Of a stretch of DNA of 64,000 nt, positions 10,474-55,980 are shown piece by piece (the stretch's first letter is position 1; each line of letters begins with the position of its first letter). This DNA comes from Methylotenera sp. (GTDB lineage Bacteria > Pseudomonadota > Gammaproteobacteria > Burkholderiales > Methylophilaceae), in assembly GCA_017880905.1 (NCBI GenBank), contig JADGRO010000016.1, positions 5,363 to 69,362 of the forward strand, in the 5' to 3' direction. The notes under the pieces are model-generated. The model had not been told where the DNA came from. It ran no database searches and was given only the letters and a program-made list of their open reading frames with translations. The position numbers and the translations under genes were made by a program.

Positions 10474-10570
10474 ATTTAAAGTGATGTTTTTATTTTTTTA
10501 ATTTTAGGATTTACTAAAAATAAATAACAACATGATTTATTTATATATTTTATTCATTCGCAACAACACA

Positions 10571-10610
10571 ACATCCATTTTGACGCAATATAAAACGTCA
10601 AATAGGATGT
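10571..10610. repeat. Imperfect 15-bp inverted repeat just upstream of the GTT core site
   Basis: ACATCCATTTTGACG-N10-CGTCAAATAGGATGT (13/15 complementary). Confidence 0.7.
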
Positions 10611-10619
10611 CTACTTTAC

Positions 10620-11332
10620 GTTGGACTGCTCAAGAATGACGACGCACGAGAAGCCGACGGGGACGAATGGCCCGGTCCGGATTACGGGCGGCGGACCTCC
10701 GCCCCAGTTCCAAGCAGTCCCTTTTCCGTGTTCCAAGCCGGAAATGGAGGCACTGATTCTCCGCGGCGCTTTGAAATTCTCCGCCGGTATGGAGAAGCCA
10801 TTCTATTCTCTGGCTGGAGAACCAATCCAGAACAAGGAGAATGACCTCGATTTCCAGCTGCCCACGGCATCAGGGCTTCAGCACCTGGATCAAGCTGAAA
10901 TCGTGCACAGCATGCACCAAGGCGACTACGCCGGAGCGCCGAACCGATACCGGGTCGGTGACATGGTGGATACCGTCTGGGGCGTGATACAGGCAAAGGA
11001 AAAGAAATACGGAGAAAGGCGAAAGCTAGCTGTGCATCTGCTGCTCTACAGCGTTGACTGGAGGTTCCTGCTGAGCGAGTCATGCATAGGCCTACTCCGC
11101 GCGTACTGTCTGCGGCGCAAACAGCACTTCGTATCAATCGCGTACTACGCGCCCATCACCGTTGACGAGGGTATTCTCTGGCCCCTAGATCCATTCGATC
11201 CCGCGTCATTGCCGCACGTTGACGAGGCTACGGTACGAAACAACGTAGTGACTAACGGAAATCCGGCCATGTTTACGCCCGCTCCGAATGGCATGGGCGC
11301 AGAGCTTCGATTCGACAAATGAGCAGTCCAAC
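10620..11332 (+). mobile_element. Integron-cassette-like solo insertion
   Basis: GTTGGACTGCTCA (10620-10632) and TGAGCAGTCCAAC (11320-11332) are perfect reverse complements; the ends fit GTTRRRY and RYYYAAC; the enclosed DNA is visibly GC-richer than its flanks. Confidence 0.6.
10636..11322 (+). CDS. Hypothetical protein, possibly PD-(D/E)XK nuclease-like fold
   Basis: 228-aa ORF from ATG 10636 filling the inverted-repeat unit; ENDLDF...DQAEI and K.KKY...LLLY patterns; foreign codon usage; function uncertain. Confidence 0.6.
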   Translation: MTTHEKPTGTNGPVRITGGGPPPQFQAVPFPCSKPEMEALILRGALKFSAGMEKPFYSLAGEPIQNKENDLDFQLPTASGLQHLDQAEIVHSMHQGDYAGAPNRYRVGDMVDTVWGVIQAKEKKYGERRKLAVHLLLYSVDWRFLLSESCIGLLRAYCLRRKQHFVSIAYYAPITVDEGILWPLDPFDPASLPHVDEATVRNNVVTNGNPAMFTPAPNGMGAELRFDK

Positions 11333-11351
11333 CAAATTAAAGGGGTCAGCT

Positions 11352-11424
11352 TCAAATTAATTTCAAAACAATGCCCCTGCAAGCCGCTCTGGTATTGTCT
11401 CACAGAGCCTGCTCAAATTAATTT
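11352..11424. repeat. 12-bp direct repeat TCAAATTAATTT
   Basis: Copies at 11352-11363 and 11413-11424; the second overlaps the stop codon of the esterase gene. Confidence 0.65.
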
Positions 11425-12041
11425 GCAAAGCCCCATTGTTTTAACGCTTGTGCCATTTTATTGCCCACTTCAACGTAGCCCTGCGCATTTGGGTGTATCT
11501 GGTCAGATTTTAAATCTCTATCCGAAAGCACATCTGAAAACACACCTGCTATCAACGGCGTTGCGGTTTCTTTAGCAAGTTTTTCATACAGCGGATGATC
11601 AGACAAATTACCAAGCGCTGCTTTTAATGGACTAAATACGGGAATCGCCACCAAAATTGTGGTCACGCCTTGTTTTTTAGATTGCGCCAAAATGCTTTTT
11701 AAATTGGCGATGGTTTCGCTTTCCGGCACTTGGTGTAAAAAATCGTTGCCGCCTAGCTCGACGATTAACAGTTTTGGTTGATCTTGTTCCAGCAAGGCCG
11801 GCAGCCGCTCTAGGCCGCCCGCTGTGGTGTCACCCGGAACGCCTTCGTTAATGATTTTCCAGCCCGTGGTTTTGGCAAGTTGCGTTGGGTAATCTTCACC
11901 CGTATTTGCACCTGTGCCGTAGCTTAGACTATCGCCCAGAATAAGCACTGTTGCGCCTTGTGGGATAGTTGTGTACTTTTCTTTGTGGCTGCCACAGCTT
12001 GTAAGGATTAAAATAAGCAGTAGATAAATAAGCTTTTTCAT
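11418..12041 (-). CDS. SGNH/GDSL arylesterase (TesA-like), lipoprotein
   Basis: GDSLSYG, N.GVPGDTT, ELGGND, D.IHPN motifs; LTSC lipobox. Confidence 0.9.
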   Translation of the reverse strand: MKKLIYLLLILILTSCGSHKEKYTTIPQGATVLILGDSLSYGTGANTGEDYPTQLAKTTGWKIINEGVPGDTTAGGLERLPALLEQDQPKLLIVELGGNDFLHQVPESETIANLKSILAQSKKQGVTTILVAIPVFSPLKAALGNLSDHPLYEKLAKETATPLIAGVFSDVLSDRDLKSDQIHPNAQGYVEVGNKMAQALKQWGFAN

Positions 12042-12056
12042 GCACTAAACCCTTAT

Positions 12057-12085
12057 AAAAAAAGCCAAGCAATTGCTTGGCTTTT
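12057..12085 (-). terminator. Rho-independent terminator (may act in both directions)
   Basis: AGCCAAGC-AATT-GCTTGGCT with A/T tracts on both sides. Confidence 0.8.
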
Positions 12086-12094
12086 ATCATGTCC

Positions 12095-12220
12095 AATTAA
12101 GTAGCTGAGTTAGATGAAATGCAAGGCGCACGGAACACAGGATATGAGATAGTACGCGGTTGTACAGCGAATATCCGAGTACCGCGTAACGCCGCAATTC
12201 GCTAACGCAGGCACTTAATT
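12095..12220. repeat. RPE-like palindromic miniature repeat element (~126 bp)
   Basis: Imperfect terminal inverted repeats (AATTAAGTAGCTGAGTTAG / reverse complement AATTAAGTGCCTGCGTTAG); internal CACGGAACACAG...GTAC...GTAC...CGAGTACCG. Confidence 0.6.
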
Positions 12221-12585: not shown

Positions 12586-12606
12586 TTTTTGCTCCTTAAA
12601 CTTCTT

Positions 12607-12657: not shown

Positions 12658-12658
12658 C

Positions 12659-13042: not shown

Positions 13043-13062
13043 GTACGTTCCTTAATTATTTT

Positions 13063-17519: not shown

Positions 17520-18395
17520 TTAGCGGCGAAAATAATATTGCGCCGCCAACCCTAGAAACAGCACTAAACCAATCCAGTTGTTAAATAAAAAAGCATAAAA
17601 ACAATTATTTTTATCGCGTGTTTTAATTAATTGGTATTGACCTAACACTAGGCCTAGAGCGGATCCTAAGCCCAAGTAATAATACTTTTCAAAACTCATA
17701 AATTTGCCCACATACCCCAGCAAACCCAGCATAACCGCATAGCAAATCATCACTGCAATCACATCATATTGCCCAAAGAATATCGCGGAAGATTTAATGC
17801 CTATTTTTAAATCATCGTCCCTATCTACCATCGCATACTCAGTGTCATAAGCTACCGCCCAAAATACATTTGTAGCCAGCAAAACCCAAGTTAGTGGCGG
17901 AATGTAGTCATTCACTGCAGCAAATGCCATGGGGATACCGAAGCCAAACGCCAAGCCCAAATAAGCTTGTGGAATCGCCAAAAAACGCTTAGTGAACGGG
18001 TAAGTCGCAGCTAAAAATAGCGCCGCGAGTGATAATAAAATAGTGGTTTTATTAAACAAAAGTACCAACGCAAAAGCCATTAAACATAAGCCAGCCGCCA
18101 AACAATACGCCTCTTTTAGGCTCACTTCACCTGTCGCAAGCGGGCGATTTTTGGTGCGTTCCACTAGGCCATCATATTTGCGGTCGGCAATGTCATTCAT
18201 TACACAGCCCGCGCTACGCATCAGCACTGCGCCTGTGATAAAAATCAGCAGTGTAATCCAGTCGGGAACGCCGCGCGAAGCCAGCCACAACGCCCATAAC
18301 GTCGGCCACAGCAGCAGCAAAATGCCGACAGGCTTATCTAGGCGCATTAAGCGTTCGTAAGCGTCTAATTTTTTGCTTAAGTTTTCAAAATTCAT
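17520..18395 (-). CDS. ubiA: 4-hydroxybenzoate octaprenyltransferase
   Basis: MRLDKPVGILLLLWP, NDIADR..D, YDT.YAMVDRDDD motifs. Confidence 0.97.
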   Translation of the reverse strand: MNFENLSKKLDAYERLMRLDKPVGILLLLWPTLWALWLASRGVPDWITLLIFITGAVLMRSAGCVMNDIADRKYDGLVERTKNRPLATGEVSLKEAYCLAAGLCLMAFALVLLFNKTTILLSLAALFLAATYPFTKRFLAIPQAYLGLAFGFGIPMAFAAVNDYIPPLTWVLLATNVFWAVAYDTEYAMVDRDDDLKIGIKSSAIFFGQYDVIAVMICYAVMLGLLGYVGKFMSFEKYYYLGLGSALGLVLGQYQLIKTRDKNNCFYAFLFNNWIGLVLFLGLAAQYYFRR

Positions 18396-18937
18396 TTTAA
18401 TAACTGCTCTAAATAAACTTCAGTAACTAATATCTTAGCGCAATCTAATTGAAACACCGAGCGGCGCGCCCATAATGTTTTTGGTTTATTTGACAGATGC
18501 TCTGCAACCCTTATAGATATTGGATGGTGGCGTGGTAGCTTTTTATAATCTAGTAGCGTGCGTATTACTTTAGGGTTAGCAAATAAAGCTGCACCAAGTG
18601 GTTTGTTGCCCAACTTACCCAAACCGCGCCAAGCCCCGCGCAAGCTGGCATGCGGCAACACACTATGCGCAAACACCACGGGTTGATTGTTGCCCATCAA
18701 TAACACCTCGCGAATCAGTGCATGCTGATTGACTTTCAAGCCAAGTAGCGCGGACTCATCTTGCAACGCTTTGGCATTTTTTAACAACACCGGCCGCACC
18801 GAAAAATCTGTGTAGCGCGCCTTTAACCGCGCAGTGAGTGAGCCAGTATCAATCAACCAAGGTTGCAACGCTTTGGCTAACATCGACTTTCTAAGCCATT
18901 GCTGACGCTGCTGAGAACGATTTTGTTGAATTTTCAC
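18392..18937 (-). CDS. ubiC: Chorismate pyruvate-lyase (start approximate, GTG at 18937)
   Basis: GSLTARL, REVLL, VFAHS, LGNKPLG..LF, WARRS.F, VTEVYL; upstream of ubiA. Confidence 0.9.
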   Translation of the reverse strand: MKIQQNRSQQRQQWLRKSMLAKALQPWLIDTGSLTARLKARYTDFSVRPVLLKNAKALQDESALLGLKVNQHALIREVLLMGNNQPVVFAHSVLPHASLRGAWRGLGKLGNKPLGAALFANPKVIRTLLDYKKLPRHHPISIRVAEHLSNKPKTLWARRSVFQLDCAKILVTEVYLEQLLK

Positions 18938-18968: not shown

Positions 18969-20303
18969 TTAAGGTAGCTCTGCCTCAAAACTATATTGGC
19001 CGATAACTCTCCCTGGAAATTTCTTGCCTTGGTTATAGTCAACCCCAACAAAATCAACAAGCCCAACGTTTATTCGATCTTTGCCGATAGAAATATCAGA
19101 TATTTGATGCCCGTTAATTGGTAATTGCACAGACCATTTCTTTTTAAGCTGGGCATTTAGGCTATACTCTAAAACTTGCAACGAGTTATTATCCTCACCA
19201 AAATCAACAATTATTCGATCTGGCTGGCAATGCATTAAACTTATCCTCGTTGCACTAGCGCCTTGTAAAGGCAAATAAAAGGATCGTGTTTCCCCATTTG
19301 TACCTGCAATTAGCTCTACTCGCTCAGCGGCGCCTGCGCTTTTAAAAGTTCCTTCTGGTACTCCAGCTACTTTGACGAATTCAGCCTGATTTTCTTTTGC
19401 AAGCTGTGTAGTGAAGTGTCGCTTCACAACTTTGTCACAGTTGCCGAGGATTTTTGGAACAAGGTACATCTGCTTCAGTTCGTAGTCGCTCAGTTCAATT
19501 TTTTCATCACTTTCTTTCACTATGTTTGCTTGCACTTTCACTGCTTTCATCTCTACATACTCCCTGAGCGAACGCCTTTCGTCAGGATCAACTGGAGGGT
19601 TCAAGTAATAACAAGAACCTGCATCTGCAATATAAGGTAACTCCATATTTAACTTAGCACTTTCCTTAATGGTTTTCCCCGACCCATCTTCATTGATGTA
19701 TTGGTGCATTTGCCCGCTATTGTATAAATCCACGTCTAGGCTTTGCCTAATTTCAGGTGTTATTTTTTCGTTCATTTCATCATTATTCTGAAGCAGATTT
19801 ACACGCAAACTAGGTGGTGCCTGTTCATAGGGTACTTGCTTCCATATTTTGTTATCCAGTTTGAAAACTGCAAACCCTTCTCGTGGAAATCCATACTCAG
19901 AACATTTGGCACCTCGCACTGGTAAAACCACCCACGGCACATTATTAACCACATCAAATGTGACTGGAAATGTTTGATCCATCACGGGTATATTCGAGTT
20001 CTCGTAAGTCCAGGGAGGATAGTCTTCAGTATTCAAAGCTAATGAATATTTGCCTGTATACCAATATTTATTAGCGTGCACCGTAATCTGCTTCCCATCC
20101 GTAGTTTCAATCAATTGCTCTGTCACAAAGTGTTCGGGCACCACATATCGGTACAATGTAGAAATTACTGTGGCTGGGCTGACTGCAGAAAGCAGGCCAG
20201 CAAACATCGCTAACATAAGTAACATAACTACTATTGTAAGCAGTGTAATTACTAGCCACTTAATGAGGGTAATGAGCTGGGCAAAAATTGATTTATTTTT
20301 CAT
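18969..20303 (-). CDS. Hypothetical membrane-anchored periplasmic protein
   Basis: 444-aa ORF with an N-terminal hydrophobic anchor; no family recognised. Confidence 0.65.
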   Translation of the reverse strand: MKNKSIFAQLITLIKWLVITLLTIVVMLLMLAMFAGLLSAVSPATVISTLYRYVVPEHFVTEQLIETTDGKQITVHANKYWYTGKYSLALNTEDYPPWTYENSNIPVMDQTFPVTFDVVNNVPWVVLPVRGAKCSEYGFPREGFAVFKLDNKIWKQVPYEQAPPSLRVNLLQNNDEMNEKITPEIRQSLDVDLYNSGQMHQYINEDGSGKTIKESAKLNMELPYIADAGSCYYLNPPVDPDERRSLREYVEMKAVKVQANIVKESDEKIELSDYELKQMYLVPKILGNCDKVVKRHFTTQLAKENQAEFVKVAGVPEGTFKSAGAAERVELIAGTNGETRSFYLPLQGASATRISLMHCQPDRIIVDFGEDNNSLQVLEYSLNAQLKKKWSVQLPINGHQISDISIGKDRINVGLVDFVGVDYNQGKKFPGRVIGQYSFEAELP

Positions 20304-20331: not shown

Positions 20332-22371
20332 TTATACCTTCACCAATTCACCCGCATGACTCATCCAACGTTCTAAATGTGCTTCTACAGCTTGCGGATA
20401 TTCCTTAATCAGCTTATCCGCCATGCTTTTGGCGCTTTCTAGTAAATCGGCATCGCGTTCTAAATCGGCAATTTTAAGCATGGGCACACCACTTTGGCGG
20501 GTGCCTAAATATTCACCCGGGCCGCGTAAATTTAAATCTGCTTGGGCGATGATAAAACCATCGTTATTTTCATAAATCACTTTTAACCGCGCGCGGGCTG
20601 TCTCACTAAGCTTATTTTGGTAGAGCAAAATGCAGGTGCTTTTTGCCGCTCCGCGCCCCACCCGGCCACGTAGCTGGTGCAACTGACTCAACCCCATACG
20701 TTCTGCGTGTTCAATTATCATTAAACTGGCATTTGGCACATCCACCCCCACTTCGATAACCGTAGTTGCTACAAGTAATTGAATTTCGCCAAATGTAAAA
20801 GCTTGCATCACAGCTTGTTTTTCTGCAGTTTTCATGCGGCCATGCACCAAGCCAATATTGAGCTCAGGGAACTCACTTTGCATATGCGCAAACGTGTCTT
20901 GCGCGGTTTGTAATTGTAGCGCCTCGCTTTCCTCAATCAACGGACACACCCAATAGGCCTGACTTCCAGCCATGCACGCTTCGCGTACGCGTTGCAAAAT
21001 TTCATCGCGCCGCTCATCCGAAACCAATTTGGTCATAACTGGCGTACGGTCAGGCGGCAGTTCATCTATCACCGAAACATCTAAATCGGCAAAATAACTC
21101 ATCGATAATGTGCGCGGAATCGGCGTGGCAGACATCATGAGCTGATGCGGTTCCGGTTCGCCTTTTTTGCGCAAAGCCAGCCGTTGCTGTACACCGAAGC
21201 GATGTTGCTCGTCGATAATGGCAAGGCCTAATTTGCTAAATTGTACTGATTCTTGAAATAAGGCATGCGTTCCAATAGCAAGCTGGGCGCGGCCGCTGGC
21301 GATGCCTTCTAATGCAGCTTCACGTTCTATTTTGCTTTGGCTGCCCGTGAGCCAAGCAATATTGATATCTAATGGTGCTAACCATTGGCTAAACTTTTTA
21401 TAATGTTGCTCCGCCAAAATTTCAGTCGGCGCCATCAGCGCCACTTGCCAGCCATGTTCTATTGCCTGCAACGCAGCCGTGCCAGCCACGATGGTTTTGC
21501 CGCTGCCGACATCGCCCTGCAACAAGCGCCGCATGGGGTGAGGCTGCATCAAATCGTGGCTGATTTCTGCCACTACTTTTTGTTGCGATTGCGTTAAAAT
21601 AAACGCCAAGTTTTTTAATAATTGCGGCGCTAATTTCTGCGATGCTGCAATGGCTGGCGCCTCCAAACTGCGCCGCTTAATGTAGTGCTTGCGCATCGAG
21701 AGTTGTTGCGACAATAGCTCGTCAAACGCCAAGCGGCGCCATTCTGGCATGGTTTTGTTTTCAAGCGTGCTTAAATTAGCGTCTGGCGGCGGATTGTGCA
21801 GCGCATGAATGCTTGTCGAAAAATTGGGTAAATTTAAGTTTTTATAAACGCATGCGGGCAAGGTTTCAGCCAGATCATTTTGACCAATGGCAAGTGCAAT
21901 TGCCTTGCGAATATTGGCTTGCGTGAGGCCTGAGGTAGTTGGGTAAACCGGCGTGAGCGTTTCAGCAACAATGGTCTGACTACCCACACTTTTGCACTGT
22001 GGGTGCACCATCTCATAGCCAAAAAAACCATGCCGCACTTCGCCATAAGCGCGAATGTACTTACCCACCGCTAGCGCCGCAACTTGGCTAGGATAAAAAT
22101 GTAAAAAACGCAAATTTATCTGCCCGCTGGCGTCTTCTAAGCGCACATGTAAGGCTTTACGAGGCTTATAGCTAACTTCGGCGTGCACAATTTCGCCTTC
22201 CATTTGCGCGGCATCGCCCAGCCGCAAATCACGAATTGCTGTGATGCGCGTTTCATCAATATAACGCAACGGTAAATGCAACAATAAGTCTTGAATAGTC
22301 GAAATGCCAAGCTTGTGCAAGTTGGTAATCAGTGGTTTGCTAAAACCTTTTATATCCGCAAGATTTGTCAT
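20332..22371 (-). CDS. recG: ATP-dependent DNA helicase RecG
   Basis: QGDVGSGKT, DEQH, MSATPIPR, HQLRGRVGRG motifs. Confidence 0.98.
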   Translation of the reverse strand: MTNLADIKGFSKPLITNLHKLGISTIQDLLLHLPLRYIDETRITAIRDLRLGDAAQMEGEIVHAEVSYKPRKALHVRLEDASGQINLRFLHFYPSQVAALAVGKYIRAYGEVRHGFFGYEMVHPQCKSVGSQTIVAETLTPVYPTTSGLTQANIRKAIALAIGQNDLAETLPACVYKNLNLPNFSTSIHALHNPPPDANLSTLENKTMPEWRRLAFDELLSQQLSMRKHYIKRRSLEAPAIAASQKLAPQLLKNLAFILTQSQQKVVAEISHDLMQPHPMRRLLQGDVGSGKTIVAGTAALQAIEHGWQVALMAPTEILAEQHYKKFSQWLAPLDINIAWLTGSQSKIEREAALEGIASGRAQLAIGTHALFQESVQFSKLGLAIIDEQHRFGVQQRLALRKKGEPEPHQLMMSATPIPRTLSMSYFADLDVSVIDELPPDRTPVMTKLVSDERRDEILQRVREACMAGSQAYWVCPLIEESEALQLQTAQDTFAHMQSEFPELNIGLVHGRMKTAEKQAVMQAFTFGEIQLLVATTVIEVGVDVPNASLMIIEHAERMGLSQLHQLRGRVGRGAAKSTCILLYQNKLSETARARLKVIYENNDGFIIAQADLNLRGPGEYLGTRQSGVPMLKIADLERDADLLESAKSMADKLIKEYPQAVEAHLERWMSHAGELVKV

Positions 22372-22374: not shown

Positions 22375-22932
22375 TCAAATTGAATAGCTTTTCAGCCAAT
22401 CTAAAACTATAGCCGCGTGCTGATTGGGTGGAAACACGGGATAAAACACTTTTTTAATAATATTTTGCCCGGCAATCAAGGTGAGTCTTTTATACAAAGT
22501 AAGCTTGCCAACCTAAAAAGTAGGCAAATTTAAAGTTTGTTTTAACTTAAAATCAACATTACTCAACAAATCAAAGGGTAAATGTAAACGATTTTTAAGT
22601 TCTAGCTGATATTCGCTAGTTTGCGTGCTTAAGCCAAAAACGCGCATATTTAAACCCTGACACTGTTGATAATGCGCACTAAAATCGCAGGCTTGTGGCG
22701 TACAGCCACACGCGCCCGGAATCTCATCCCAGCCCTCCGTCAGAGCTAACTCAGGTTGACCGGTGAGTGGATAAATATAAATGACTATTTTTTCATGATT
22801 AAAACTGAAGTTTTGTCCGTTAGTAGAAAGCAATGAAACATCGGGTAAACGCATACCTACTAGGTGCGCGGCTTGCCCGTCATCCATCGGCACTGGCAAG
22901 CCTGCAGGTAATTGATTGAGGTTTTGATTCAC
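22375..22932 (-). pseudogene. Peroxiredoxin (BCP/AhpC-TSA-like) interrupted by an in-frame TAG at 22513-22515
   Basis: Frame continues past the stop as VGKLTLYKRLTLI...VFYPVFPP...WLKSYSI* to 22375; WDEIPGACGCTPQAC active-site region. Confidence 0.8.
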
Positions 22933-30396: not shown

Positions 30397-31263
30397 TTAT
30401 TCGATATTTTGAATCTGCTCGCGCATTTGTTCGATTAACACTTTAAGCTCCATCGAAATTTGGCTGGTTTCAATTGTCACCGATTTTGAGCCCAGTGTAT
30501 TCGCTTCGCGATTCATTTCTTGCATTAAAAAATCTAAGCGCTTACCCACTGAACCACCACCATTCAGAATACGTTTTACTTCGTTAATGTGCGTATTTAA
30601 ACGTGATAATTCTTCATCTACATCAATGCGCTGTGCAAACAGCACGATTTCCTGGCGAACGCGCTCGTCATCTCCACTCGCATTGGCTTCGTTTAGTTTG
30701 GCAGTAAGCTTTTCCTGATATTGCTTAATTAAAGCAGGCATCATCGGTTTCACTTTTGTAACTTGTTGCTCAATCTCTTGCAAACGTACCAAAATAATGG
30801 CTTTTAGCTTTTCGCCTTCACGCGCTTTTGCCTCAATTAAATCTTGCAATACTTGATTCAAACTTGTTTTTAAATCATTTTCCAGCGCATCCGTATTTAA
30901 AGCTTCTGTCGCCATCACACCTGGCATTTGTAGTATCTCAAGCATATTGACGGGTTGTGTATGTGGAAAATACTGCGCGGCAACTTTTGCGCTTTCGGCA
31001 ATTTGCTGCAAAACCGTATGATTAAGCTGCGGTGCGCTATCCGCATCAGCACTATGCACCAAACTCAAGCGACAATCGACCTTGCCACGCCCTAGTTTAG
31101 CCTGAATAAGCTCGCGCACGGCGGCTTCAAAACCGCGCAAATTATCATCTAATTTGAGTTGTAACTCTAGGTAACGATGGTTCACCGAGCGCAATTCAAT
31201 CAACAAAATTCCATTCATAGTGTTGCGTTCTTGCGACGCATAGCCTGTCATACTTAGTATCAT
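30397..31263 (-). CDS. yicC: YicC/YloC family endoribonuclease
   Basis: SMTGY, RSVNHRYL, RGKVDC, GKRLDFLMQEMNREANTLGSK. Confidence 0.95.
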   Translation of the reverse strand: MILSMTGYASQERNTMNGILLIELRSVNHRYLELQLKLDDNLRGFEAAVRELIQAKLGRGKVDCRLSLVHSADADSAPQLNHTVLQQIAESAKVAAQYFPHTQPVNMLEILQMPGVMATEALNTDALENDLKTSLNQVLQDLIEAKAREGEKLKAIILVRLQEIEQQVTKVKPMMPALIKQYQEKLTAKLNEANASGDDERVRQEIVLFAQRIDVDEELSRLNTHINEVKRILNGGGSVGKRLDFLMQEMNREANTLGSKSVTIETSQISMELKVLIEQMREQIQNIE

Positions 31264-41516: not shown

Positions 41517-42464
41517 ATGAAAAACCCACCAATAAGACTAGTCATCGCCTCGCGCGAAAGTGCGCTGGCCATGTGGCAAGCTAAACATATTCAAGCAAAA
41601 TTGCAATCCTTATATCCAAATTGTGAAGTCACAATTTTGGGCATGACGACAACTGGTGACCAAATTTTAGATTCACCCTTGGCGTATATTGGTGGCAAAG
41701 GCTTATTTGTAAAAGAGCTAGAAACCGCGCTTGCTAATGGTAGTGCCGATTTGGCCGTGCATAGCATGAAAGATGTACCGATGAACTTGCCCGATGGTTT
41801 TATGCTCGTCGCCACTGGCGAGCGCGAAGATGCGCGCGATGCATTTGTTTCAAACAATTTTAAAAATTTGGAAAGCTTGCCGCATGGTAGCATTGTGGGC
41901 ACCTCTAGCTTGCGTCGTCAAAGCCAATTACAGGCACGCTTTCCGCATCTCAAAATTGAATCACTACGCGGTAATTTACAAACACGTTTGCGTAAATTAG
42001 ACGAAGGCCAATATGCTGCAATTATTTTAGCGGCTGCGGGTTTAATTCGGTTAGGACTCGCAAATCGCATTAAGGACACCATCAGTCCGCAAGACAGCAT
42101 CCCTGCCGTTGGGCAAGGCGCGCTGGGTATAGAAATTAACGCGATGAGAGGTGATTTATTGGAAATTCTTGCGCCGCTTAATCATACCGACACACAGCTT
42201 TGTGTAGAGGCTGAGCGCGCTTTCAGCCGCGCCTTGGCAGGTAGTTGCACCGTGCCGCTGGGCGCTTATGCTTTGCGCGATGACGATACCATTAATATCG
42301 CCGGCTTTGTAGCAAGTGTGGATGGCAAGCAAATGTTGCGTGAAAAAGCACATGGCCCAGCAGCCAATGCAGAAGCGGTTGGTAGAGCATTGGCGGATAA
42401 ACTTATCAGCCGCGGCGCAGATAAAATACTCGCTGCTCTTGACCACATAAATAATGCAAAATAA
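41517..42464 (+). CDS. hemC: Hydroxymethylbilane synthase
   Basis: [32 protein letters not shown]. Confidence 0.98.
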
Positions 42465-43218
42465 GCCTTTAACTGTCATCACCATTGCGGTTACCCGCCC
42501 AGTTGATCAGGCGCAGGCTTTATGCGAGGCCATTACCCACCTTGGTGGCAGAGCAGTTTTGTTTCCCCTGCTTGCTATCACACCCTTGCCAGATTATCAC
42601 GCGTTTGAGCAACAACTTGCTGAACTAGAAACGACCGATTGGGCGATTTTCATCAGCTCAAACGCCGTTAATTACACCATGCCACGTGTGCTTAAGCACT
42701 ATGGCAATATCCCAGATAACTTAAAATTTGCTGCCATTGGCCACCAATCCGCCAAAGAGCTTGCACATTATGGCGTACGCAATGTGCTAACCCCACACAC
42801 CCGCTTTGATAGTGAAACTTTGCTAGCCTTGCCAGAAATGCATGATGTTGCCAACATGAAAATTGCTATTTTTCGTGGTGTTGGTGGGCGCGAGTTGATG
42901 GCAGAAACACTTACTGCACGCGGTGCCAACGTTTATTTTGCAGAATGTTATCAGCGCATTAATCCGCAAACTGATGCCAATTTACTGGGCGAACTTTGGA
43001 AGAAAGGCGAGCTGCAAGCGATTATTGTCACCAGCTCCGAAGCTATGCGCTACTTACTAGACATAGCGGGCACTTCAGAGTGGTTGCGCCACGTGACACT
43101 ATGCGTTAACCACGCTAGAATCGCAGAATTACCGTTACAGTTAGGCTTAAAAGTATTGGTAGCAGACGCACCAGGTGATGAGGCGATGCTGAAAAAATTG
43201 GTTAATAATTTATGTTAA
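42454..43218 (+). CDS. hemD: Uroporphyrinogen-III synthase
   Basis: [27 protein letters not shown]. Confidence 0.93.
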
Positions 43219-43251
43219 AGTTAGTTATACATTGATTTATTAAGGAATTTT

Positions 43252-44044
43252 ATGGCCATCAAATCCAAACCTCCATCAATTAATGAACAAGCCTTTGATT
43301 GCCCACACTGCGGGGCATACACGACACAGTATTGGTTCGATGTGCACATCGAACCAATAAAAAGATAATGACACGCCAATTGTATCAAGCACTATGTTTA
43401 GGGCGGTACTAAATGAGGGAAAACAACTGCCAGAAGATGTCAAAAAGAAGCAACTCAAATGGTGCGACGATATGGATTTTGGACTCATTTTTTTAGAGAA
43501 AGTTAGCGGCTATATAGACTATATTGCTTACAATATTCATCTTAGCAAGTGCTATCACTGTAAGAAAATAGCTGTCTGGATACATGGCAATCTTATATTT
43601 CCAAATGAAAAGATAGGCGTAATTCCAAATCCCGATTTGCCAGCTGAAATAATTCGAGATTTTGAAGAAGCAAGATCGATTCTCGGAGAATCGCCTAGGG
43701 GCGCTGCGGCGTTGCTTCGGCTTTGTGTTCAGAAGCTATGTGTGCATTTAGGGGAAAAAGGAAAGAATATTGATGATGATATTGTGAGTCTTGTGAAAAA
43801 AGGTCTAAACCCGTTGGTCAAGAAGTCATTAGATATTGTACGAGTCATCGGAAATGAAGCTGTTCACCCTGGTGTCATTGACTTAAATGATGATAGAGAT
43901 ACTGCTTCACAACTTCTCGACCTCATAAATTCTATAGCTGACCAAATGATTAGCCATCCAAAGCATGTTGAAGCAATGTATGAAAAATTACCTGAAAGCA
44001 AAAGAGTAGCTATCGAAAAACGTGATGAGAAATCAAAAAACTAA
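43252..44044 (+). pseudogene. DUF4145 (HEPN-like) protein with N-terminal CPHC, split by a +1 frameshift in A5 at 43359-43363
   Basis: AAGGA SD and ATG 43252 give MAIKSKPPSINEQAFDCPHCGAYTTQYW...; removing one A joins it in frame to the 43394 ORF; SPRGAAALLRLC and RVIGNEAVHPG. Confidence 0.75.
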
Positions 44045-45078
44045 GCCTTAGGTAGTGGGTTAGCAAACGTAAACGCATCACTAAAAAACTCATCCGCAGG
44101 CAAGCCTTGTTGCACAAAGGTTTGATGCGCTGCTTCACACATGCCAGGTGCGCCACACACATAGGCTTGGTAGGCGCTTAAATCCCTGTTTTGATTTAGG
44201 ACGTCATCCAATACAGCTTGGTGTACTAGCCCTGTTCTACCTTGCCAATTGCTACTAGACTGCGGTTCTGAAATCACAGGGATATACGTTAAATGTGGGG
44301 TAAATTCTGCCCATTTTTCGCACAGCTCATTCATGTATAAATCCTCTGCCACCCGCGCACCGCGATACAAAATAATTTCGCGTTTGATATTGTTGTGCAG
44401 CATGTGCTCAATAATGCCTTTAACTGGGGCAAAGCCAGTGCCGCCTGCTACAAAAATAACGGGCTTATCGGAATCCTCGCGCAGAAAAAAGTTACCAAAT
44501 GGCCCCTCTAGCCGCAAGATGGCCTTTTCTTGCATTTCATTCGCCACGTAAACGCTAAATACACCACCTGGGATGACGCGAATATGTAGCTGTAAAAATT
44601 CAGCATCGTGCGGGGCATTAGCGATAGAAAACGCGCGACGCTTGCCATCTTTTAAAATAAACTCAATATACTGACCTGCCAAAAACTGTAAGCGCTCACT
44701 CGCCGGTAATTGCAAGTGTAAAGCCACCACATCGTGCGAAAGCTGTTCTTTTTTAGCCACGCGCGCTGGCAAAATGCGCGGCTTGATACCGGTTAATCCA
44801 CCCACTTCGCGACATTCTACGATGATATCTTCTAACGGACGGGCGCAGCAAAGCAAAGTGTTGCCCGCGGCAAGCTCCACTTCTGTCATGGCACTATGTT
44901 GGTAATCGTCATGCACGACTTTGCCAGCAACTAATTTGGCTTTGCAGCTTCCGCATGCGCCATTGCGACAGCCGTATGGTATGTGAATATCCGCTTCAAT
45001 CGCAGCTTCTAGCACGGTTTGGCTTAGGCGCACATCAAACGTGTGGCCGCTATTTTGAATAGTGACTTGATGACTCAT
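44041..45078 (-). CDS. CDP-6-deoxy-delta-3,4-glucoseen reductase-like 2Fe-2S/FAD/NAD oxidoreductase
   Basis: CRNGACGSC, RAFSIAN, GGTGFAP, CG.P motifs. Confidence 0.9.
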   Translation of the reverse strand: MSHQVTIQNSGHTFDVRLSQTVLEAAIEADIHIPYGCRNGACGSCKAKLVAGKVVHDDYQHSAMTEVELAAGNTLLCCARPLEDIIVECREVGGLTGIKPRILPARVAKKEQLSHDVVALHLQLPASERLQFLAGQYIEFILKDGKRRAFSIANAPHDAEFLQLHIRVIPGGVFSVYVANEMQEKAILRLEGPFGNFFLREDSDKPVIFVAGGTGFAPVKGIIEHMLHNNIKREIILYRGARVAEDLYMNELCEKWAEFTPHLTYIPVISEPQSSSNWQGRTGLVHQAVLDDVLNQNRDLSAYQAYVCGAPGMCEAAHQTFVQQGLPADEFFSDAFTFANPLPKA

Positions 45079-47970: not shown

Positions 47971-48417
47971 ATGGCAACTAAGTCAGTATTAGTGTTGCAT
48001 GGCCCGAACCTGAATCTGCTCGGTGCGCGCGAACCAGAGCATTATGGCAGTTTGACTTTGGCCGATATTAATAACAATCTGCAAACACTGGCCAAACAAG
48101 CCAATATCGCATTAGAAACTTATCAAAGTAATGCAGAAGCCGAAATTGTAGCCAAAATCCAATCTTTGGCTATCAACAAAGTTGATTTTATTATTATCAA
48201 TCCCGCTGCGTTTACACATACTTCTATTTCGATTCGCGATGCGATTTCTGCAGTAAAAATTCCGTTTATCGAAGTGCATTTATCTAACGTATTTGCCCGC
48301 GAAAGTTTTAGGCATCACTCATATTTTAGCGATATTGCCGTAGGCGTGATTAGCGGCTTGGGCGCAGAAGGTTACAGCGCCGCCTTTAATTTCGCTGCAA
48401 ATCAACTCAATAATTAA
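47971..48417 (+). CDS. aroQ: Type II 3-dehydroquinate dehydratase
   Basis: [29 protein letters not shown]. Confidence 0.97.
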
Positions 48418-48438
48418 AAATTATTCCCCGAGGTTATT

Positions 48439-48888
48439 ATGGATTTACGTAAACTTAAAAAATTGATTGATTTGGTGGAAGAATCCGGTATTTCTGAACT
48501 AGAACTTACCGAAGGTGAAGAAAAAGTACGCATTAGCCGCGCCTTGATGCCAAGCCAAACGCCTATGACGCACTATATGGCTACGGCACCACAACCAGTA
48601 GCAAGTGCCACGCCTATGCCAACCGCCGCAGCGCCTGTGGTTGCTGAAGTTGAAGGTCACATTGTTAAATCACCTATGGTGGGAACATTTTATCGCTCGT
48701 CTTCACCTGATGCAAAAGCGTTTATAGATATCGGCTCTAAAGTTGCCGTTGGCGATACGCTCTGTATTATTGAAGCCATGAAATTACTCAATGAAATTGA
48801 TTCTGACCACGCAGGCGTAATCAAAAAAATCTTGGTTGAGAACGGGCAACCGGTTGAATACGGCGAACCTTTATTTGTGATCGGTTAA
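48439..48888 (+). CDS. accB: Biotin carboxyl carrier protein
   Basis: [13 protein letters not shown]. Confidence 0.98.
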
Positions 48889-48892
48889 TTAA

Positions 48893-50242
48893 ATGTTTGA
48901 AAAAATACTGATTGCCAATCGCGGCGAGATAGCACTTCGCGTGCAGCGTGCATGCCGTGAGCTAGGCATCAAAACAGTTGCTGTGCATTCTGAAGCCGAT
49001 AAAGAAGCTAAATACGTCAAACTGGCCGATGAGTCTGTCTGCATTGGACCAGCGCCTTCTAACCAAAGCTATTTGAATATCCCCGCCGTAATTAGTGCGG
49101 CTGAAGTCACCGACGCGCAAGCGATTCATCCCGGTTATGGTTTTTTATCCGAAAATGCTGATTTTGCAGAACGCGTAGAGCAAAGCGGCTTTGTGTTTAT
49201 TGGCCCACGAGCTGAAACCATACGTTTAATGGGCGACAAAGTCTCCGCTAAAGACGCCATGAAAAAAGCGGGTGTGCCTTGCGTGCCAGGCTCTGAAGGC
49301 GCATTGCCCGACGATTCTGCAGAAATAATAAAAACCGCTAAAAAAGTGGGTTATCCCGTGATTATTAAGGCGGCTGGCGGTGGTGGCGGACGTGGTATGC
49401 GCGTAGTGCATACCGAGGCAGCGCTCATCAATGCGGTTGCTATGACCAAAGCCGAGGCGCAAGCTGCATTTGGCAACCCCATGGTATACATGGAAAAATT
49501 TTTAGAAAATCCACGCCATATCGAAATACAGATAATGGCAGATCAACACGGTAATGCGGTGTTTTTAGGCGATCGTGATTGCTCCATGCAGCGCCGCCAT
49601 CAAAAAATTATTGAAGAAGCGCCTGCGCCATTACTTAATCCTAAATTGCGCAACAAAATTGGTGAACGTTGCGCAGATGCTTGTCGCAAAATTAAATATC
49701 GCGGCGCGGGTACGTTTGAGTTTTTATATGAAAATGAAGAATTTTACTTTATCGAAATGAATACGCGCTTGCAAGTTGAGCATACCGTTACCGAGATGAT
49801 TACCGGGCTTGATTTGGTACAAGAACAAATTTTTGTTGCCGCAGGTGAAAAATTAAAATTCCGCCAAAAAGACATTGAATTGCGTGGCCATGCGATTGAA
49901 TGTCGCATTAATGCAGAAGATCCCTATAATTTCATACCATCTCCTGGTCGTATAGGCACGTTTCATATGCCGGGCGGGCCAGGTGTACGTATTGATACAC
50001 ATGTATATTCTGGCTACACTGTGCCGCCATTCTATGATTCTATGATAGGCAAACTCATCACCTATGGTGCCACACGCAATCAAGCGATTGCGCGCATGCG
50101 CATTGCGCTTTCTGAAATGCTAGTGGATGGCATTAAAACTAATATTCCACTGCATGAAGATTTAATGGCAGATGCGGCCTTTCACTTAGGCGGCACCAGC
50201 ATTCACTACCTGGAACAGAAACTGGGTATACAGCATAAGTAA
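48893..50242 (+). CDS. accC: Biotin carboxylase
   Basis: [41 protein letters not shown]. Confidence 0.99.
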
Positions 50243-51127
50243 GTGGCGTGGTTATTACTTAAAATTGATGCCGACGAGCATAATGCTGATGCGATTAGCG
50301 ATGCATTGATGCGTATTGGCGCGCTTTCTGCCAGCATCGAAGACGCAAATGCTGAAACTCATGCCGAACAAGCTATTTTTGACGAACCTGGGGATCCACC
50401 CCCAGGTATATGGCAGCAAAATATTGTCACTGCGATGTTTGATGAAGCTACCGATGTAACCCGAATAATTAGCACACTTAGCCGAGAAACTAACATTCAA
50501 GCGTTTCAGTACAGCACTGAAATAATTGCCGAGCAAGATTGGGTGCACGCTACACAAGCACAGTTTGACCCGATTAAAATTACCAATAATTTATGGATTG
50601 TGCCCACATGGCATGTTGCGCCAAACCAAGAGGCAATCAATATCGTGCTAGACCCTGGTTTGGCTTTTGGCACAGGCAGTCACCCTACCACAAGCTTGTG
50701 TTTGGAATGGCTTACACAACAGCAAGACATAAATAGCGTATTAGATTACGGTTGTGGCTCCGGCATTTTAGCCATCGCTGCCAAAAAATTAGGCGCGCAA
50801 CACGTAGTTGGCGTGGATATTGACGATCAAGCCATTATTGCAAGCAACAATAATGCAGCGCAAAATCGGGTTGAGATTGATTTTTATGATGCAAATACAT
50901 TTACTCAGCAAACTTTTGATGTAGTTGTAGCCAATATTTTATCCAGCGCATTGATGGTGCTGGCACCTGTGCTAGCAAAGTATTGCAAAACTGGTGGTAA
51001 ATTGGCATTATCAGGTATATTAGAGAGTCAAAAAGATGCGCTGACTACGCGCTACAGTGAATGGTTTAACATGGATACGCCCACACAAAAGAACGCTTGG
51101 ATACTGCTTACAGGCACAAAACGATGA
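50243..51127 (+). CDS. prmA: Ribosomal protein L11 methyltransferase (GTG start)
   Basis: DPGLAFGTGSHPTT, LDYGCGSGIL, VANIL. Confidence 0.97.
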   Translation: MAWLLLKIDADEHNADAISDALMRIGALSASIEDANAETHAEQAIFDEPGDPPPGIWQQNIVTAMFDEATDVTRIISTLSRETNIQAFQYSTEIIAEQDWVHATQAQFDPIKITNNLWIVPTWHVAPNQEAINIVLDPGLAFGTGSHPTTSLCLEWLTQQQDINSVLDYGCGSGILAIAAKKLGAQHVVGVDIDDQAIIASNNNAAQNRVEIDFYDANTFTQQTFDVVVANILSSALMVLAPVLAKYCKTGGKLALSGILESQKDALTTRYSEWFNMDTPTQKNAWILLTGTKR

Positions 51128-53359: not shown

Positions 53360-53381
53360 GATGACTGTTGAGGAGAGCAAT

Positions 53382-53432
53382 ATGTTGAAAACTATTTTGA
53401 AACAATGTGTTACACATTTAGCCAAGTGCTAG
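53382..53432 (+). CDS. Candidate 16-aa leader peptide MLKTILKQCVTHLAKC
   Basis: GAGGAG SD shortly before ATG 53382; TAG at 53430; no homology evidence. Confidence 0.35.
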   Translation: MLKTILKQCVTHLAKC

Positions 53433-53491
53433 TTGAACTACTAGCTAACTACGCTGCAAGCAATTAACTTTTATATATTTTTACAGGAAAA

Positions 53492-54940
53492 ATGATGATG
53501 AGTAACAAAAAAAGATTAACCACTGCCGCTGGCGCACCTGTGCCGGATAACCAAAACACCATGACTGCAGGGCCTCGTGGGCCAGCATTGTTGCAAGATG
53601 TTTGGTTGTTAGAAAAACTTGCCCACTTTGACCGCGAAGTGATTCCTGAGCGCCGCATGCACGCCAAAGGTTCCGGCGCTTATGGCACGTTTACCATAAC
53701 GCACGACATTACCCAATACACGCGCGCTAAAATATTCTCACAAATTGGCAAAAAAACTGAATTGTTCGCACGTTTTACTACAGTTGCAGGTGAGCGCGGT
53801 GCCGCCGATGCCGAGCGCGATATTCGCGGCTTTGCGTTGAAGTTTTATACCGAAGAAGGCAACTGGGATTTAGTGGGTAACAATACGCCTGTGTTCTTCT
53901 TGCGCGATCCGCTTAAATTCCCCGATTTAAAACACGCTGTGAAACGCGACCCCAAAACCAACATGCGTAGCGCCGAGAACAACTGGGATTTCTGGACATC
54001 ATTGCGTGAAGCCTTGCACCAAGTCACCATTGTAATGAGCGAACGAGGCTTACCCGCCACTTACCGCCACATGCATGGCTTTGGTAGCCACACCTTTAGC
54101 TTTATTAATGCTAAAAATGAACGCTTTTGGGTTAAATTCCACTTCCGTTCACAACAAGGCATTAAAAATCTAACTGACGCAGAGGCCCAAGAGATTGTAG
54201 GTAAAGACCGTGAAAGCCATCAACGCGACCTTTACGAATCAATTGAAAATCGTGACTTTCCAAAATGGATACTTTTCGTACAAATCATGCCAGAAAAAGA
54301 TGCGGGTTCTTACCACTTAAACCCGTTCGATTTAACCAAAGTGTGGCCACATGGCGATTACCCTTTGATTGAAGTGGGCGTAATGGAGCTTAACCGTAAC
54401 CCGGAAAACTTTTTTGCCGAAGTAGAGCAATCCGCTTTTAACCCTGCGGCGGTAGTACCTGGCATCAGCTTTTCACCAGATAAGATGCTGCAGGCGCGTT
54501 TGTTCTCTTACGGTGATGCTCAGCGTTACAGATTAGGCGTTAATCATCACCAGATACCCGTAAATGCGCCTAAATGCCCTTTCTACAGCTATCACCGTGA
54601 CGGTGCAATGCGCATAGATGGCAACCAGGGTGCTACGATTGGCTACGAGCCAAACAGCAAAGGCGAGTGGCAAGAACAGCCAGACTTTTCAGAGCCACCA
54701 TTAGCCGTTGAAGGCATGGCAGATCACTGGAATCACCGCGTAGATGAAGATTATTTTTCACAACCGGGTAATTTGTTCCGCTTGATGACGCCAGCGCAAC
54801 AACAAGTGTTGTTTGAAAATACCGCACGTTCTGTTGGCGGCGCGTCTGTGGAGATTCAAAAACGCCACATTGCCAACTGCTCTAAGGCAGACCCAGCTTA
54901 CGGCACAGGTATTGCCAAAGCATTAGGTTTAAAAGTTTAA
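53492..54940 (+). CDS. katA: Monofunctional heme catalase
   Basis: [35 protein letters not shown]. Confidence 0.96.
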
Positions 54941-54955
54941 ATACTTACCCCTCTT

Positions 54956-54979
54956 AGCCCGCGCAAGCGGGCTTTTTTT
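54956..54979 (+). terminator. Terminator after katA
   Basis: AGCCCGC-GCAA-GCGGGCT plus TTTTTT. Confidence 0.9.
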
Positions 54980-55054
54980 CTGTAAAATTTTGCACATGCT
55001 TGCGACAAAACAAAGTGTTTATCACTTAAAATAACCCTTTATAAAAGGATTAGC

Positions 55055-55219
55055 ATGAAAACTTGGGTATGCGTTGTATGCGGTTTTATTTACGAGGAAG
55101 AAAAAGGCTGTCCAGAAGACGGCATCCCTGCTGGCACCGCGTGGGAGGATGTACCTGCGGATTGGAAATGCCCGGAATGTGGTGCAAGTAAAGCAGAATT
55201 TGAAATGGTGGAGTTTTAA
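55055..55219 (+). CDS. Rubredoxin (not in the ORF track)
   Basis: [13 protein letters not shown]...[21 protein letters not shown], two CxxCG motifs; AAGGA SD. Confidence 0.95.
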
Positions 55220-55264
55220 AAGCAGGTGCCCTGCAAAGCAATATCCATGCAGATTATAGAGATA

Positions 55265-55944
55265 TTAATTCTTCGGTAGTTGGCACGCGTGCGCAAATGA
55301 ACGACCTAAAACTGTTGGATTGACCCTACCAAAGCTCTCACCTCCGCCCCATGTCGTGCCTATGCGTATGCACCCAAGCCGCGCAAGATTGCCTAAAGCT
55401 AGAACGATGTCCCCGACGGTTCGAGAAGATCCATTTCTTTCTCTTCCTTGATCCGCACAGAACGAGGCAAATCAACGGTAACTATGCCTGCATGCTGACT
55501 CTGCTCAAAAGGCAAAGCATAAAGTACATCCAAAATTTGTGCTTCTAGTGGCGTAAGTTGCTCCAATATATCAAGATAAGAGCGGCGAATTTCCGTATCA
55601 AAACTAGCGTTCGCTGCATTTACCATCAGCATCGCCCATCTATCCTGAAGGCCATCATCATCTTCAAGTGTTGCCCCTTGAAGCAACGGAACCATAAGTT
55701 TCAATGGTATCGGCTTCGTTGGACTGGAAAGGCCAGATTGCTTTAGAAGTTCCTCCGCACGCAACATCAAACGCAGTTGACGCTCCCAACGCGCATACCG
55801 TAAATGATCCTCAAAAATTCCAATACCTTGTTCAAGTGGCCCAGAAACAAAGCGGGCAATAAATCCGCCTGCTTCTCGAGCGGCATCGATTGCCTTGCCC
55901 GCAGTTTTAGCAACCTCTTGAACAGCTTTTGATTCTTCTTCCAT
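55265..55944 (-). pseudogene. Abi-alpha (DUF4393-like) protein with a -1 frameshift at the G4 run 55411-55414
   Basis: P.KL..PLL.GA.LE.D..LQ..WA.L..NA pattern; adding one G extends to DIVLALGNLARLGCIRIGTTWGGGESF...ACQLPKN*. Confidence 0.7.
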
Positions 55945-55980
55945 GGGCTTCCTGTAACGAAATAAGAAACCTGAGTGGTT

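Follow-up and report, generated by a model that had tools for sequence, protein, structure and literature searches.

How single foreign genes come to lie directly behind housekeeping genes, and whether several such genes on one chromosome arrived by the same route, is the question raised by a conserved stretch of DNA from Methylotenera sp. The stretch, called the window below, comprises 64,000 nucleotides (nt) of contig JADGRO010000016.1 (C42; positions 5,363 to 69,362, forward strand) of assembly GCA_017880905.1 (G000), a 92% complete metagenome-assembled genome (MAG) of 1.93 Mb in 54 contigs from a permafrost metagenome whose source-run depth was only 2-6x. A preliminary description had placed one foreign gene, or cargo, behind each of gltA, hemD and gyrB and possibly another behind recG and had proposed that the integron integrase IntI possibly filled such slots at secondary GTT sites. 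The explanation that we consider probable for the whole set is a mixed one: the cargos behind gltA and hemD would be two stranded integron cassettes, those behind gyrB and recG are inserts without an integron mark, and all four occupy slots whose content turns over between species.

When every open reading frame (ORF) of the window was compared with five long syntenic contigs of the genus, the backbone was found to be kept from 5.5 to 64 kb (about 58 kb). The real genes without a counterpart in this shared stretch were an orphan behind gltA, a 444-aa gene behind recG, a DUF4145 gene behind hemD, an Abi-alpha gene behind gyrB and a small ORF, o139; once o139, which is known in other species of the genus, is set aside, none but the four flagged genes is missing from all five syntenic relatives. 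Across the 30 species genomes in which slot occupancy was compared, each of the four slots held a differing cargo or was empty. Strong variation was confined to five of the 50 junctions joining conserved genes, namely gltA/GDSL lipase, hemD/ferredoxin reductase, rubredoxin/gyrB, ubiC/recG and recG/next gene, so that 3 of the 9 convergent junctions were variable as compared with 2 of the 41 others (Fisher's test, P = 0.035). The convergent junctions holding cargo in the window are the first three of these. Four runs of the same sample were assembled independently, and the resulting contigs read across all eight cargo junctions, without any alternative joint. The independent spanning assemblies, taken together with the slot turnover, imply that the inserts are real and the slots true hotspots. 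Thus, the four genes are one-gene inserts in backbone slots that turn over between species. The preliminary description was correct in their positions, in assigning three of them to convergent junctions and in regarding the slots as dispersed and variable, with cargos foreign to syntenic relatives; the cargo turnover it expected is also evident, but the breakpoints are scattered and not fixed.

The clearest case is the slot behind gltA, which is composed of the following features.

9175-10473, + strand: gltA (citrate synthase; Pfam Citrate_synt, E 1.3e-137), its stop codon abutting the leader.
10474-10620, + strand: integrase-less copy of an integron attI leader, with a promoter-like motif overlapping a palindrome.
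10620-10626, + strand: core site GTTGGAC (GTTRRRY) at the exact leader end, with the probable crossover between 10620 and 10621.
10621-11332, + strand: integron gene cassette, GC content 57%, carrying the orphan ORF.
10636-11322, + strand: orphan ORF of 228 aa, possibly 192 aa from 10744.
11326-11332, + strand: R'' inverse core GTCCAAC, the remaining part of the cassette attC.
11418-12041, - strand: GDSL lipase gene (Pfam Lipase_GDSL_2, E 4e-24), the convergent right flank.

The gltA gene itself is 85-94% identical in 29 of 31 genus genomes. The 147 bp that follow its stop codon are 81% identical, over 111 bp, to the stretch from the intI start to the first cassette in relative G001. In a search of one genome per species the core motif of this leader was detected at 63 loci, the leader family being concentrated in Methylophilaceae; at 21 of these loci an intI gene on the opposite strand has its start about 100-150 bp upstream, and at four of them gltA ends there. 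All leader copies end in ..CTAYTTTACGTTRRRY / ...GGATGYCTAYTTTACGTTRRRY, and their sequences diverge beyond this point. The common end with divergence after it implies that the leader behaves as an attI site. The site behind gltA is a copy of the integron's own attI leader and not a secondary site. Inside the palindrome the leader also contains a promoter-like motif (TTGACG at 10580-10585, a 17-nt spacer and TAGGAT at 10603-10608), which is predicted from its consensus match to be a cassette promoter.

The cargo behind this leader is bounded by a 13-bp inverted repeat (10620-10632 and 11320-11332), the right arm of which is TGAGCAGTCCAAC, with the complementary R'' core as its last seven bases. 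The integron core sites that had been noticed earlier on at least one cargo are thus present here as GTTGGAC and GTCCAAC. Only seven homologues of the orphan were found among 5.8 billion proteins. The one at L162 (78% identity) stands in a cassette array, begins with the same GTTGGACTG and closes with the same ...AGCAGTCCAAC, behind which a complete 67-nt attC lies; the homologue at L164 (45% identity) is also placed between attC sites. Past R'', the sequence in the window is unrelated, and no attC was detected on the contig by nhmmer with a genus attC profile or by a structural scan. The orphan was absent at the gltA slot of all relatives compared. In three of these relatives (G005, G012 and G004) the same gltA leader is followed by other cassettes, the attC of which is intact, and altogether the slot contains about 15 different co-oriented cargos and two opposite ones, and is empty in three genomes (G001, G006 and G021), where the GDSL lipase gene lies about 20-70 bp from the gltA stop codon. 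Measured against the usual description of an integron cassette, the gltA cargo has the G/TT boundary and occurs as a cassette elsewhere, and its 3' attC is missing; as a platform, the site has attI with a candidate promoter, and gltA takes the place of an adjacent intI. To judge from these boundaries and homologues, the cargo behind gltA is a genuine cassette that sits at a genuine attI and whose attC is truncated. The suggestion that the orphan encodes a PD-(D/E)XK nuclease was neither supported nor excluded by its structure model, the mean predicted local distance difference test score (pLDDT) of which was 63 and which gave no match below E 0.2 in a fold search.

The leader is not confined to gltA and intI. 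At least 15 copies in Methylophilaceae have no intI within several kb and are situated downstream of a co-oriented gene, about a dozen of them starting 0-50 bp past its stop codon. Besides gltA, these orphan leaders accompany acs in four species (L186, L190, L200 and L224), fur (L180 and L197), a bamD-like gene (L221 and L227) and tpx (L196), where they start 0-101 bp past the stop codon, and many of them have attC cassettes behind them. In Methylotenera mobilis 13 an intI-linked copy (L226) and the acs-linked copy (L186) are found on one scaffold, and MAG LC076 likewise carries both an intI-linked and an orphan leader copy. Tentatively, we consider it possible that Methylophilaceae run a multi-platform integron, in which one IntI would serve several integrase-less attI leader copies, each with a promoter-like motif and fused within 0-50 bp to the stop codon of a co-oriented housekeeping gene, a different one for each copy. 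If this were so, the multi-platform integron and insertions at secondary sites would together yield dispersed, expressed one-gene variable slots, and the loss of IntI would fix the cassettes, through attC erosion, as ordinary-looking genes unseen by attC-based detection. The picture of the integron would widen if one integrase serves many platforms.

The integrase gene is present in many genomes of the genus. With the curated cut-off of TIGR02249 (265 bits) as the criterion for IntI, 27 of the 47 genus genomes surveyed scored above it, although the best score in the present genome was 82 bits; the search for intI suggested at the outset therefore had a negative outcome here. Six tyrosine recombinases are encoded by the genome and none of them on the window's contig, in agreement with the earlier statement that no integrase is nearby. 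In relative G022 the integron is placed between a PPK2-like gene and dhaL/dhaK, and its first cassette past attI (L137:1628-2509) encodes what we take, from its resemblance in sequence, to be a class A beta-lactamase-type protein. The same flanks on contig C17 of the present genome (30541-32467) enclose about 190 bp, one canonical attC (30730-30786) and three small ORFs, and neither intI nor the leader is present at this locus. As both integron flanks lie on one contig without intI, the gene has been deleted at its usual locus and was not lost in an assembly gap. Canonical attC sites of 58-60 nt adjoin intI in relatives, and eight further attC matches were found at four other loci of this genome (contigs C8, C48, C50 and C53), which together with C17 gives five attC loci. 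A generic scan for RYYYAAC...GTTRRRY hairpins produced many false matches in genes, was rejected as sole evidence and was relied on only where position and homology were considered as well. IntI-type recombination plays a real part in the genus, and the present lineage once possessed an active integron, whose cassettes it dispersed before the enzyme was lost.

The second cargo with cassette features is found behind hemD, a gene present in 29 of the 31 genus genomes.

42454-43218, + strand: hemD (uroporphyrinogen-III synthase; Pfam HEM4, E 2.6e-41), stop codon 43216-43218.
43220-43226, + strand: GTTAGTT, the likely cassette 5' end, one base past the hemD stop and 32 nt ahead of the ATG.
43252-44044, + strand: DUF4145 gene of PD-T7-4 type, in frames 43252-43368 and 43394-44044, split at an A-run (43359-43363).
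44041-45078, - strand: ferredoxin-NAD(P) reductase-type gene (FNR; Pfam Fer2, FAD_binding_6 and NAD_binding_1), the convergent right flank.

The cargo matches the PADLOC profile PD-T7-4 (PDLC04109; E 6.6e-74, profile positions 40-210 of 211) and also Pfam DUF4145; the first approximately 40 profile positions correspond to the upstream frame 43252-43368. The run of five A at 43359-43363 in the assembly is four in one contig from run X1, where the frame is a continuous one of 263 codons. This difference could be a sequencing error or a true length variation that could switch the PD-T7-4-type gene on and off, and the frameshift may be a sign of starting decay. Phage defence by this gene is putative, being predicted from the profile match.

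The borders of the insert are indicated by relatives with an empty site (G022 and G045), whose similarity to the window covers the hemD stop codon plus one base and breaks at 43219/43220. On the right the similarity resumes at 44057, so that about 45 nt of ancestral sequence have been replaced, including the last approximately eight codons of the reductase, and the stop codons of cargo and reductase overlap. This right junction leaves no room for an attC, and GCCT after the stop codon alone resembles the start of an R''. For comparison, 76 metagenome loci with homologues of the cargo were found and 64 homologues were read. A strict attC scan revealed an attC-like site after 6 of these 64, including the two closest (84% identity), and reading of the flanks revealed a cassette layout in several more, with GTTAGGC or GTTAGAC 25-35 nt before the ATG and attC behind the gene. 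Moreover, an AAGGAA ribosome site is common to the window cargo and the cassette-borne homologues. The hemD cargo has, judging by these homologues, a cassette ancestry. The most economical reading, and a probable one, is that a cassette was inserted at G/TT beside the hemD stop codon and that a deletion subsequently removed its attC.

This reading of the cargo does not extend to the whole hemD slot. The slot is empty in 13 of the 30 species genomes and filled in twelve, with about 11 different cargos. Breakpoints scatter, one cargo being fused in frame to hemD and others overlapping its end. The common GTT breakpoint motif that had been predicted was not found at a significant level: a GTT motif is shared by 6 of the 12 filled slots (P = 0.12). 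Among 60 hemD and recG loci of relatives no attC was detected by the genus profile, and a looser scan flagged one short 53-nt hairpin in the hemD slot of G004. The genus has four further DUF4145 genes, one behind rsmI, two behind aspS (in two species) and one behind glmS, those at rsmI and aspS lying at convergent junctions. These four inserts lacked attC and shared flanks, and when all five DUF4145 inserts were searched for non-coding ends that are conserved, none were found. We also observed that in seven species with an empty slot (L076, L079, L083, L084, L089, L092 and L096) the 3' ends of hemD and the reductase gene overlap by about 28 nt, which is unusually tight for an insertion hotspot. 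In the hemD slots of G016 and G014 (L077 and L082) a second repeat family, with CTTGTAGGGTGGGTCAC...GTGACCCACCCTACAAG palindromes, directly follows the hemD stop codon.

The remaining two slots are of a different kind. The one behind gyrB adjoins the replication origin region, as the window extends to dnaN and dnaA.

55981-58392, - strand: gyrB (Pfam gyrase B domains), the upstream flank.
55265-55944, - strand: Abi-alpha gene, frameshifted, with 181 aa in one frame (ORF 55399-55944) and about 45 aa in another, starting 36 nt past the gyrB stop.
55055-55219, + strand: rubredoxin gene, read from sequence, the convergent right flank.

The Abi-alpha gene matches Pfam Abi_alpha (PF14337; E 4.8e-18, 66.3 bits against a cut-off of 29) at profile positions 2-96 of 196 only. 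Compared with intact 226-aa homologues it has a net -1 shift in a variable linker, and the shift is also present in contigs of runs X1 and X3. Within the genus the gene is unique to this genome. In every species compared, the sequences of the gyrB slot diverge directly past the stop codon: a different gene starts about 10-45 bp downstream in five species, and a hairpin followed by a T-run is found in six others. Copies of the rubredoxin gene 54-62% identical to that of the window are located 1.8-17.8 kb from gyrB in four relatives. The spacer ahead of Abi-alpha contains no GTTRRRY, and attC was found in none of the four homologue contexts read; integron hallmarks for Abi-alpha were rejected on the latter ground. 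In relative G022, a two-gene insert in the gyrB slot is ended by a canonical attC. Of the three cargos thought at first to be defence- or nuclease-like, the PD-T7-4 match is strong and the Abi_alpha match partial, and the nuclease fold of the orphan is unsupported.

Two further observations concern this slot. A 79% identical Abi-alpha homologue in a Gallionella sp. MAG (L319:2501-3230) lies two bases past a DegT aminotransferase gene in an arn-like operon, and its frameshift falls in the E/K-rich linker that is also affected in the window copy. In the gyrB slot of G022 (G022:C12, about 48200-50340) a hairpin resembling repetitive extragenic palindromes (REP-like) and the rubredoxin 3' end are duplicated around a block of two ORFs (150 and 98 aa), which suggests successive insertions that copied the target.

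The slot behind recG lies between co-oriented genes.

20332-22371, - strand: recG (Pfam RecG_wedge, DEAD and Helicase_C), present in 31 of 31 genus genomes.
18969-20303, - strand: 444-aa gene, 28 nt past the recG stop and 31 nt before ubiC; its product has a membrane helix at the N-terminus and is otherwise rich in strands.
18392-18937, - strand: ubiC (chorismate lyase), true start GTG at 18937, the co-oriented downstream flank.
17520-18395, - strand: ubiA (TIGR01474, E 1e-104), following ubiC.

The ubiC assignment comes from an NCBIfam chorismate lyase match (E 4e-20) of 71.8 bits, which is below the 191-bit cut-off; ubiC directly follows recG in nine species. Overall, the slot is empty in nine cases and filled by four co-oriented and seven opposite cargos. 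The 444-aa protein had no match in Pfam, NCBIfam, PADLOC or PHROGs. It has 15 homologues, and at the recG site the gene is found only here and, broken, in G016. In three contexts read, distant homologues belong to a fixed operon with LGT and a radical SAM gene and are not cassettes. The spacer before the gene has no GTT whatever on the coding strand. An attempt to derive a function from structure was abandoned, as the model (pLDDT 70) had only strand-rich matches at template modelling (TM) scores of about 0.15, which are not meaningful. The Abi-alpha and 444-aa genes carry no integron mark. On the other side of recG, between it and the upstream 749-aa gene, o139 (22513-22932, - strand) encodes a 139-aa thioredoxin-fold protein with a weak peroxiredoxin match; it was found in only about 6 of the 30 species and forms a fifth, less variable slot.

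The preliminary description had regarded all four cargos as promoterless and co-oriented with the upstream gene. No promoter-like or terminator-like motifs were found on the coding strand of the hemD (33 nt), gyrB (36 nt) and recG (28 nt) spacers, whereas the gltA cargo stands behind the promoter-like motif of the leader. The consensus scans gave counts no higher than those in shuffled sequence and show only the absence of obvious motifs in the spacers. The motif-free spacers point to read-through from the core gene as the probable source of transcript, and the hemD, gyrB and recG cargos are likely to be transcribed in this way. The co-orientation is correct as stated, but for any single gene in a convergent junction it is automatic and uninformative, and the orientation in the recG slot is mixed (four co-oriented versus seven opposite). 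Only the strand bias inside the hemD and gltA slots carries orientation information; in the hemD slot 10 of the 12 filled species have the cargo on the hemD strand (P = 0.012). Leading-strand bias as a cause of the cargo orientation was rejected, since GC skew places hemD and gltA on the lagging strand but gyrB and recG on the leading one.

We suggest the following course of events. The gltA orphan would have been captured at the G/TT of the integrase-less attI leader by IntI acting in trans, and the hemD cargo would have entered at G/TT one base past the hemD stop codon by an insertion at a secondary site, where it could be read through from hemCD. Later deletions would have taken the attC hairpins from both cassettes, and the one at hemD would also have changed the final codons of the convergent reductase gene. 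The lineage would then have lost intI and attI at the usual integron locus, and since both were lost, the gltA and hemD cassettes would no longer be excisable. The Abi-alpha and 444-aa genes most likely came by signature-free recombination and may have been kept since 3' junctions tolerate inserts and give read-through transcription.

Several points weigh against this account. It does not explain how an attI leader reached the gltA stop codon, and the leader promoter is a mere consensus match of a kind no commoner than in shuffled sequence. At hemD, a GTTRR in the 33-nt spacer has about a 10% chance of occurring by itself, the rest of the case being cargo homology, and the attC that a cassette should retain at its right junction is gone. 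The other hemD-slot cargos lack a canonical attC by the genus profile, although the cargo of G004 ends in the short attC-like hairpin, and this implies that a mechanism other than IntI could fill the hemD slot, the window cargo included. In addition, the genome is 92% complete, so that a small probability remains of an intI elsewhere in it.

Three other explanations have to be weighed. According to the first, IntI used secondary GTT sites to fill all four slots, and the attC sites were all eroded afterwards. Erosion of attC is directly shown for the gltA cassette, the insert in the gyrB slot of G022 bears a canonical attC, attC cassettes are scattered over five other loci of the genome, and IntI is known to insert cassettes at GWT sites genome-wide, where they can be expressed from nearby promoters (10.1101/2022.09.11.507474). 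However, no GTTRRRY precedes Abi-alpha and no coding-strand GTT precedes the 444-aa gene, the four Abi-alpha homologue contexts are free of attC, the distant 444-aa homologues belong to a fixed operon with a radical SAM gene, the 60 hemD and recG loci contain no canonical attC, and the recG-slot orientation is mixed. An IntI origin of all four inserts is therefore unlikely, and the initial proposal of secondary GTT sites fits the hemD cargo but neither the attI leader at gltA nor the unmarked Abi-alpha and 444-aa genes.

The second explanation dispenses with IntI: illegitimate or one-sided homologous recombination, with exchange through the conserved flanks, would have created islets for which cassette-type genes are merely common cargo. 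In line with this, breakpoints scatter round stop codons with fusions, overlaps and replaced gene ends, the target is duplicated in the gyrB slot of G022, the DUF4145 genes behind rsmI, aspS and glmS lack attC and common flanks, and GTT is not enriched near the hemD stop codon. What such a process leaves unexplained is that the gltA cargo starts at the exact crossover base of a true attI leader and keeps R'', that relatives have attC cassettes behind the same leader and that the 5' end of the hemD cargo is still of cassette type, with the usual spacing to the ATG. For the four slots as a whole, we judge it improbable. The third explanation, which ascribes the inserts to errors of assembly or binning in a MAG of low coverage, is most implausible: in its favour are the 2-6x depth and one homopolymer that differs in length between assemblies, but the eight junctions are all bridged, with no competing joint, by assemblies made separately from four runs, the 444-aa gene recurs at this site in G016 and complete genomes of the genus show a like slot occupancy. 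We therefore retain the account of two stranded cassettes at gltA and hemD and two unmarked inserts at gyrB and recG.

A dispersed repeat was also encountered in the course of this analysis. It is the REP-like hairpin of about 45-50 nt already mentioned for G022, which has a conserved loop (CCGCATGGATATTGG) and co-varying stems and often stands at the 3' ends of genes; about 20 intergenic copies were counted in G000, its core motif also occurs inside ORFs, and it matched no Rfam family. An Rfam scan of the whole window matched no family either. The window contains three copies.

55223-55266, - strand: REP-like hairpin separating the Abi-alpha remnant from the rubredoxin gene (nhmmer match to the hairpin profile, E 7.7e-9).
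11371-11412, + strand: degenerate REP-like hairpin just before the GDSL lipase stop, with better-conserved copies at the same place in relatives.
35991-36027, - strand: REP-like hairpin.

The possibility that this hairpin with its ...CCGCATGGATATTGG... loop represents a second type of attC was rejected, as its flanks have no AAC/GTT cores, the motif is also found in coding sequence and the hairpin occurs beside true attC sites in G022.

Among known systems, the two cassettes of the window come closest to the CALIN and SALIN elements of IntegronFinder, defined as attC sites, clustered or single, without an integron integrase (10.1101/2022.09.11.507474). Like these, they are chromosomal cassettes with no integrase beside them, and such elements are present at five other loci of this genome (C8, C17, C48, C50 and C53) and in the gltA and gyrB slots of relatives. 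However, with the genus attC profile and the structural scan no complete attC was found anywhere on the window's contig, so its two cassettes fall outside the definition and beyond the reach of attC-based finders; the gltA cassette differs also in keeping an attI leader. The hemD cargo can further be compared with attG insertions, described in a preprint by Loot et al. (10.1101/2022.09.11.507474), in which IntI integrates cassettes at GWT sites outside att sites and resident promoters express them. The hemD cargo would agree with these in being a cassette-type gene that starts at a G/TT in ordinary chromosomal DNA; it lies behind an expressed operon and has no promoter-like motif of its own. 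The published experiments used laboratory E. coli and V. cholerae, whereas the present case would be a natural and old event in a methylotroph, in which attC has been deleted, the end of the neighbouring gene rewritten and the integrase lost from the genome.

Sedentary chromosomal integrons may be fixed beside a housekeeping gene and are prone to integrase decay, as exemplified by the Xanthomonas integron beside ilvD. The gltA platform resembles them in being anchored at the end of a core gene and in a cassette content that varies by species. In contrast to them, its intI is wholly absent and not decayed, although a few bases resembling the first intI codons may remain between the gltA stop codon and the leader, and in several relatives the gltA platform coexists with a separate complete integron. 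The likeness of the window to flexible-genome hotspots, where a few core-gene junctions take most of the horizontally acquired genes, is that a few, mainly convergent, junctions hold nearly all of its variation; the difference is that the inserts are single genes within a few bases of the flanking stop codons and not multi-gene islands with integrases. Phage-defence genes have been documented as integron cassettes (10.1101/2024.07.02.601719), and the hemD cargo is similar in that it matches the single-gene system PD-T7-4 and has cassette-borne relatives, although the window copy is frameshifted in the assembly and its defence activity is putative. The occurrence of PD-T7-4-type genes on cassettes in other bacteria fits the view that small anti-phage genes spread as cassettes, and the relatives within the genus sit just behind core operons.

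Taken together, the gltA and hemD cargos are of a known kind (CALIN, SALIN and attG) in a degraded natural form, and what is new is that these examples no longer satisfy attC-based definitions. They provide a natural example of gene capture by a route that is known but has seldom been documented and, with their relatives, a natural before-and-after series in which capture at an orphan attI or at a secondary G/TT would be followed by loss of the attC hairpin and of the integrase, leaving ordinary chromosomal genes. As fossil cassettes of this kind escape attC-based tools, integron-derived genes may be under-counted.

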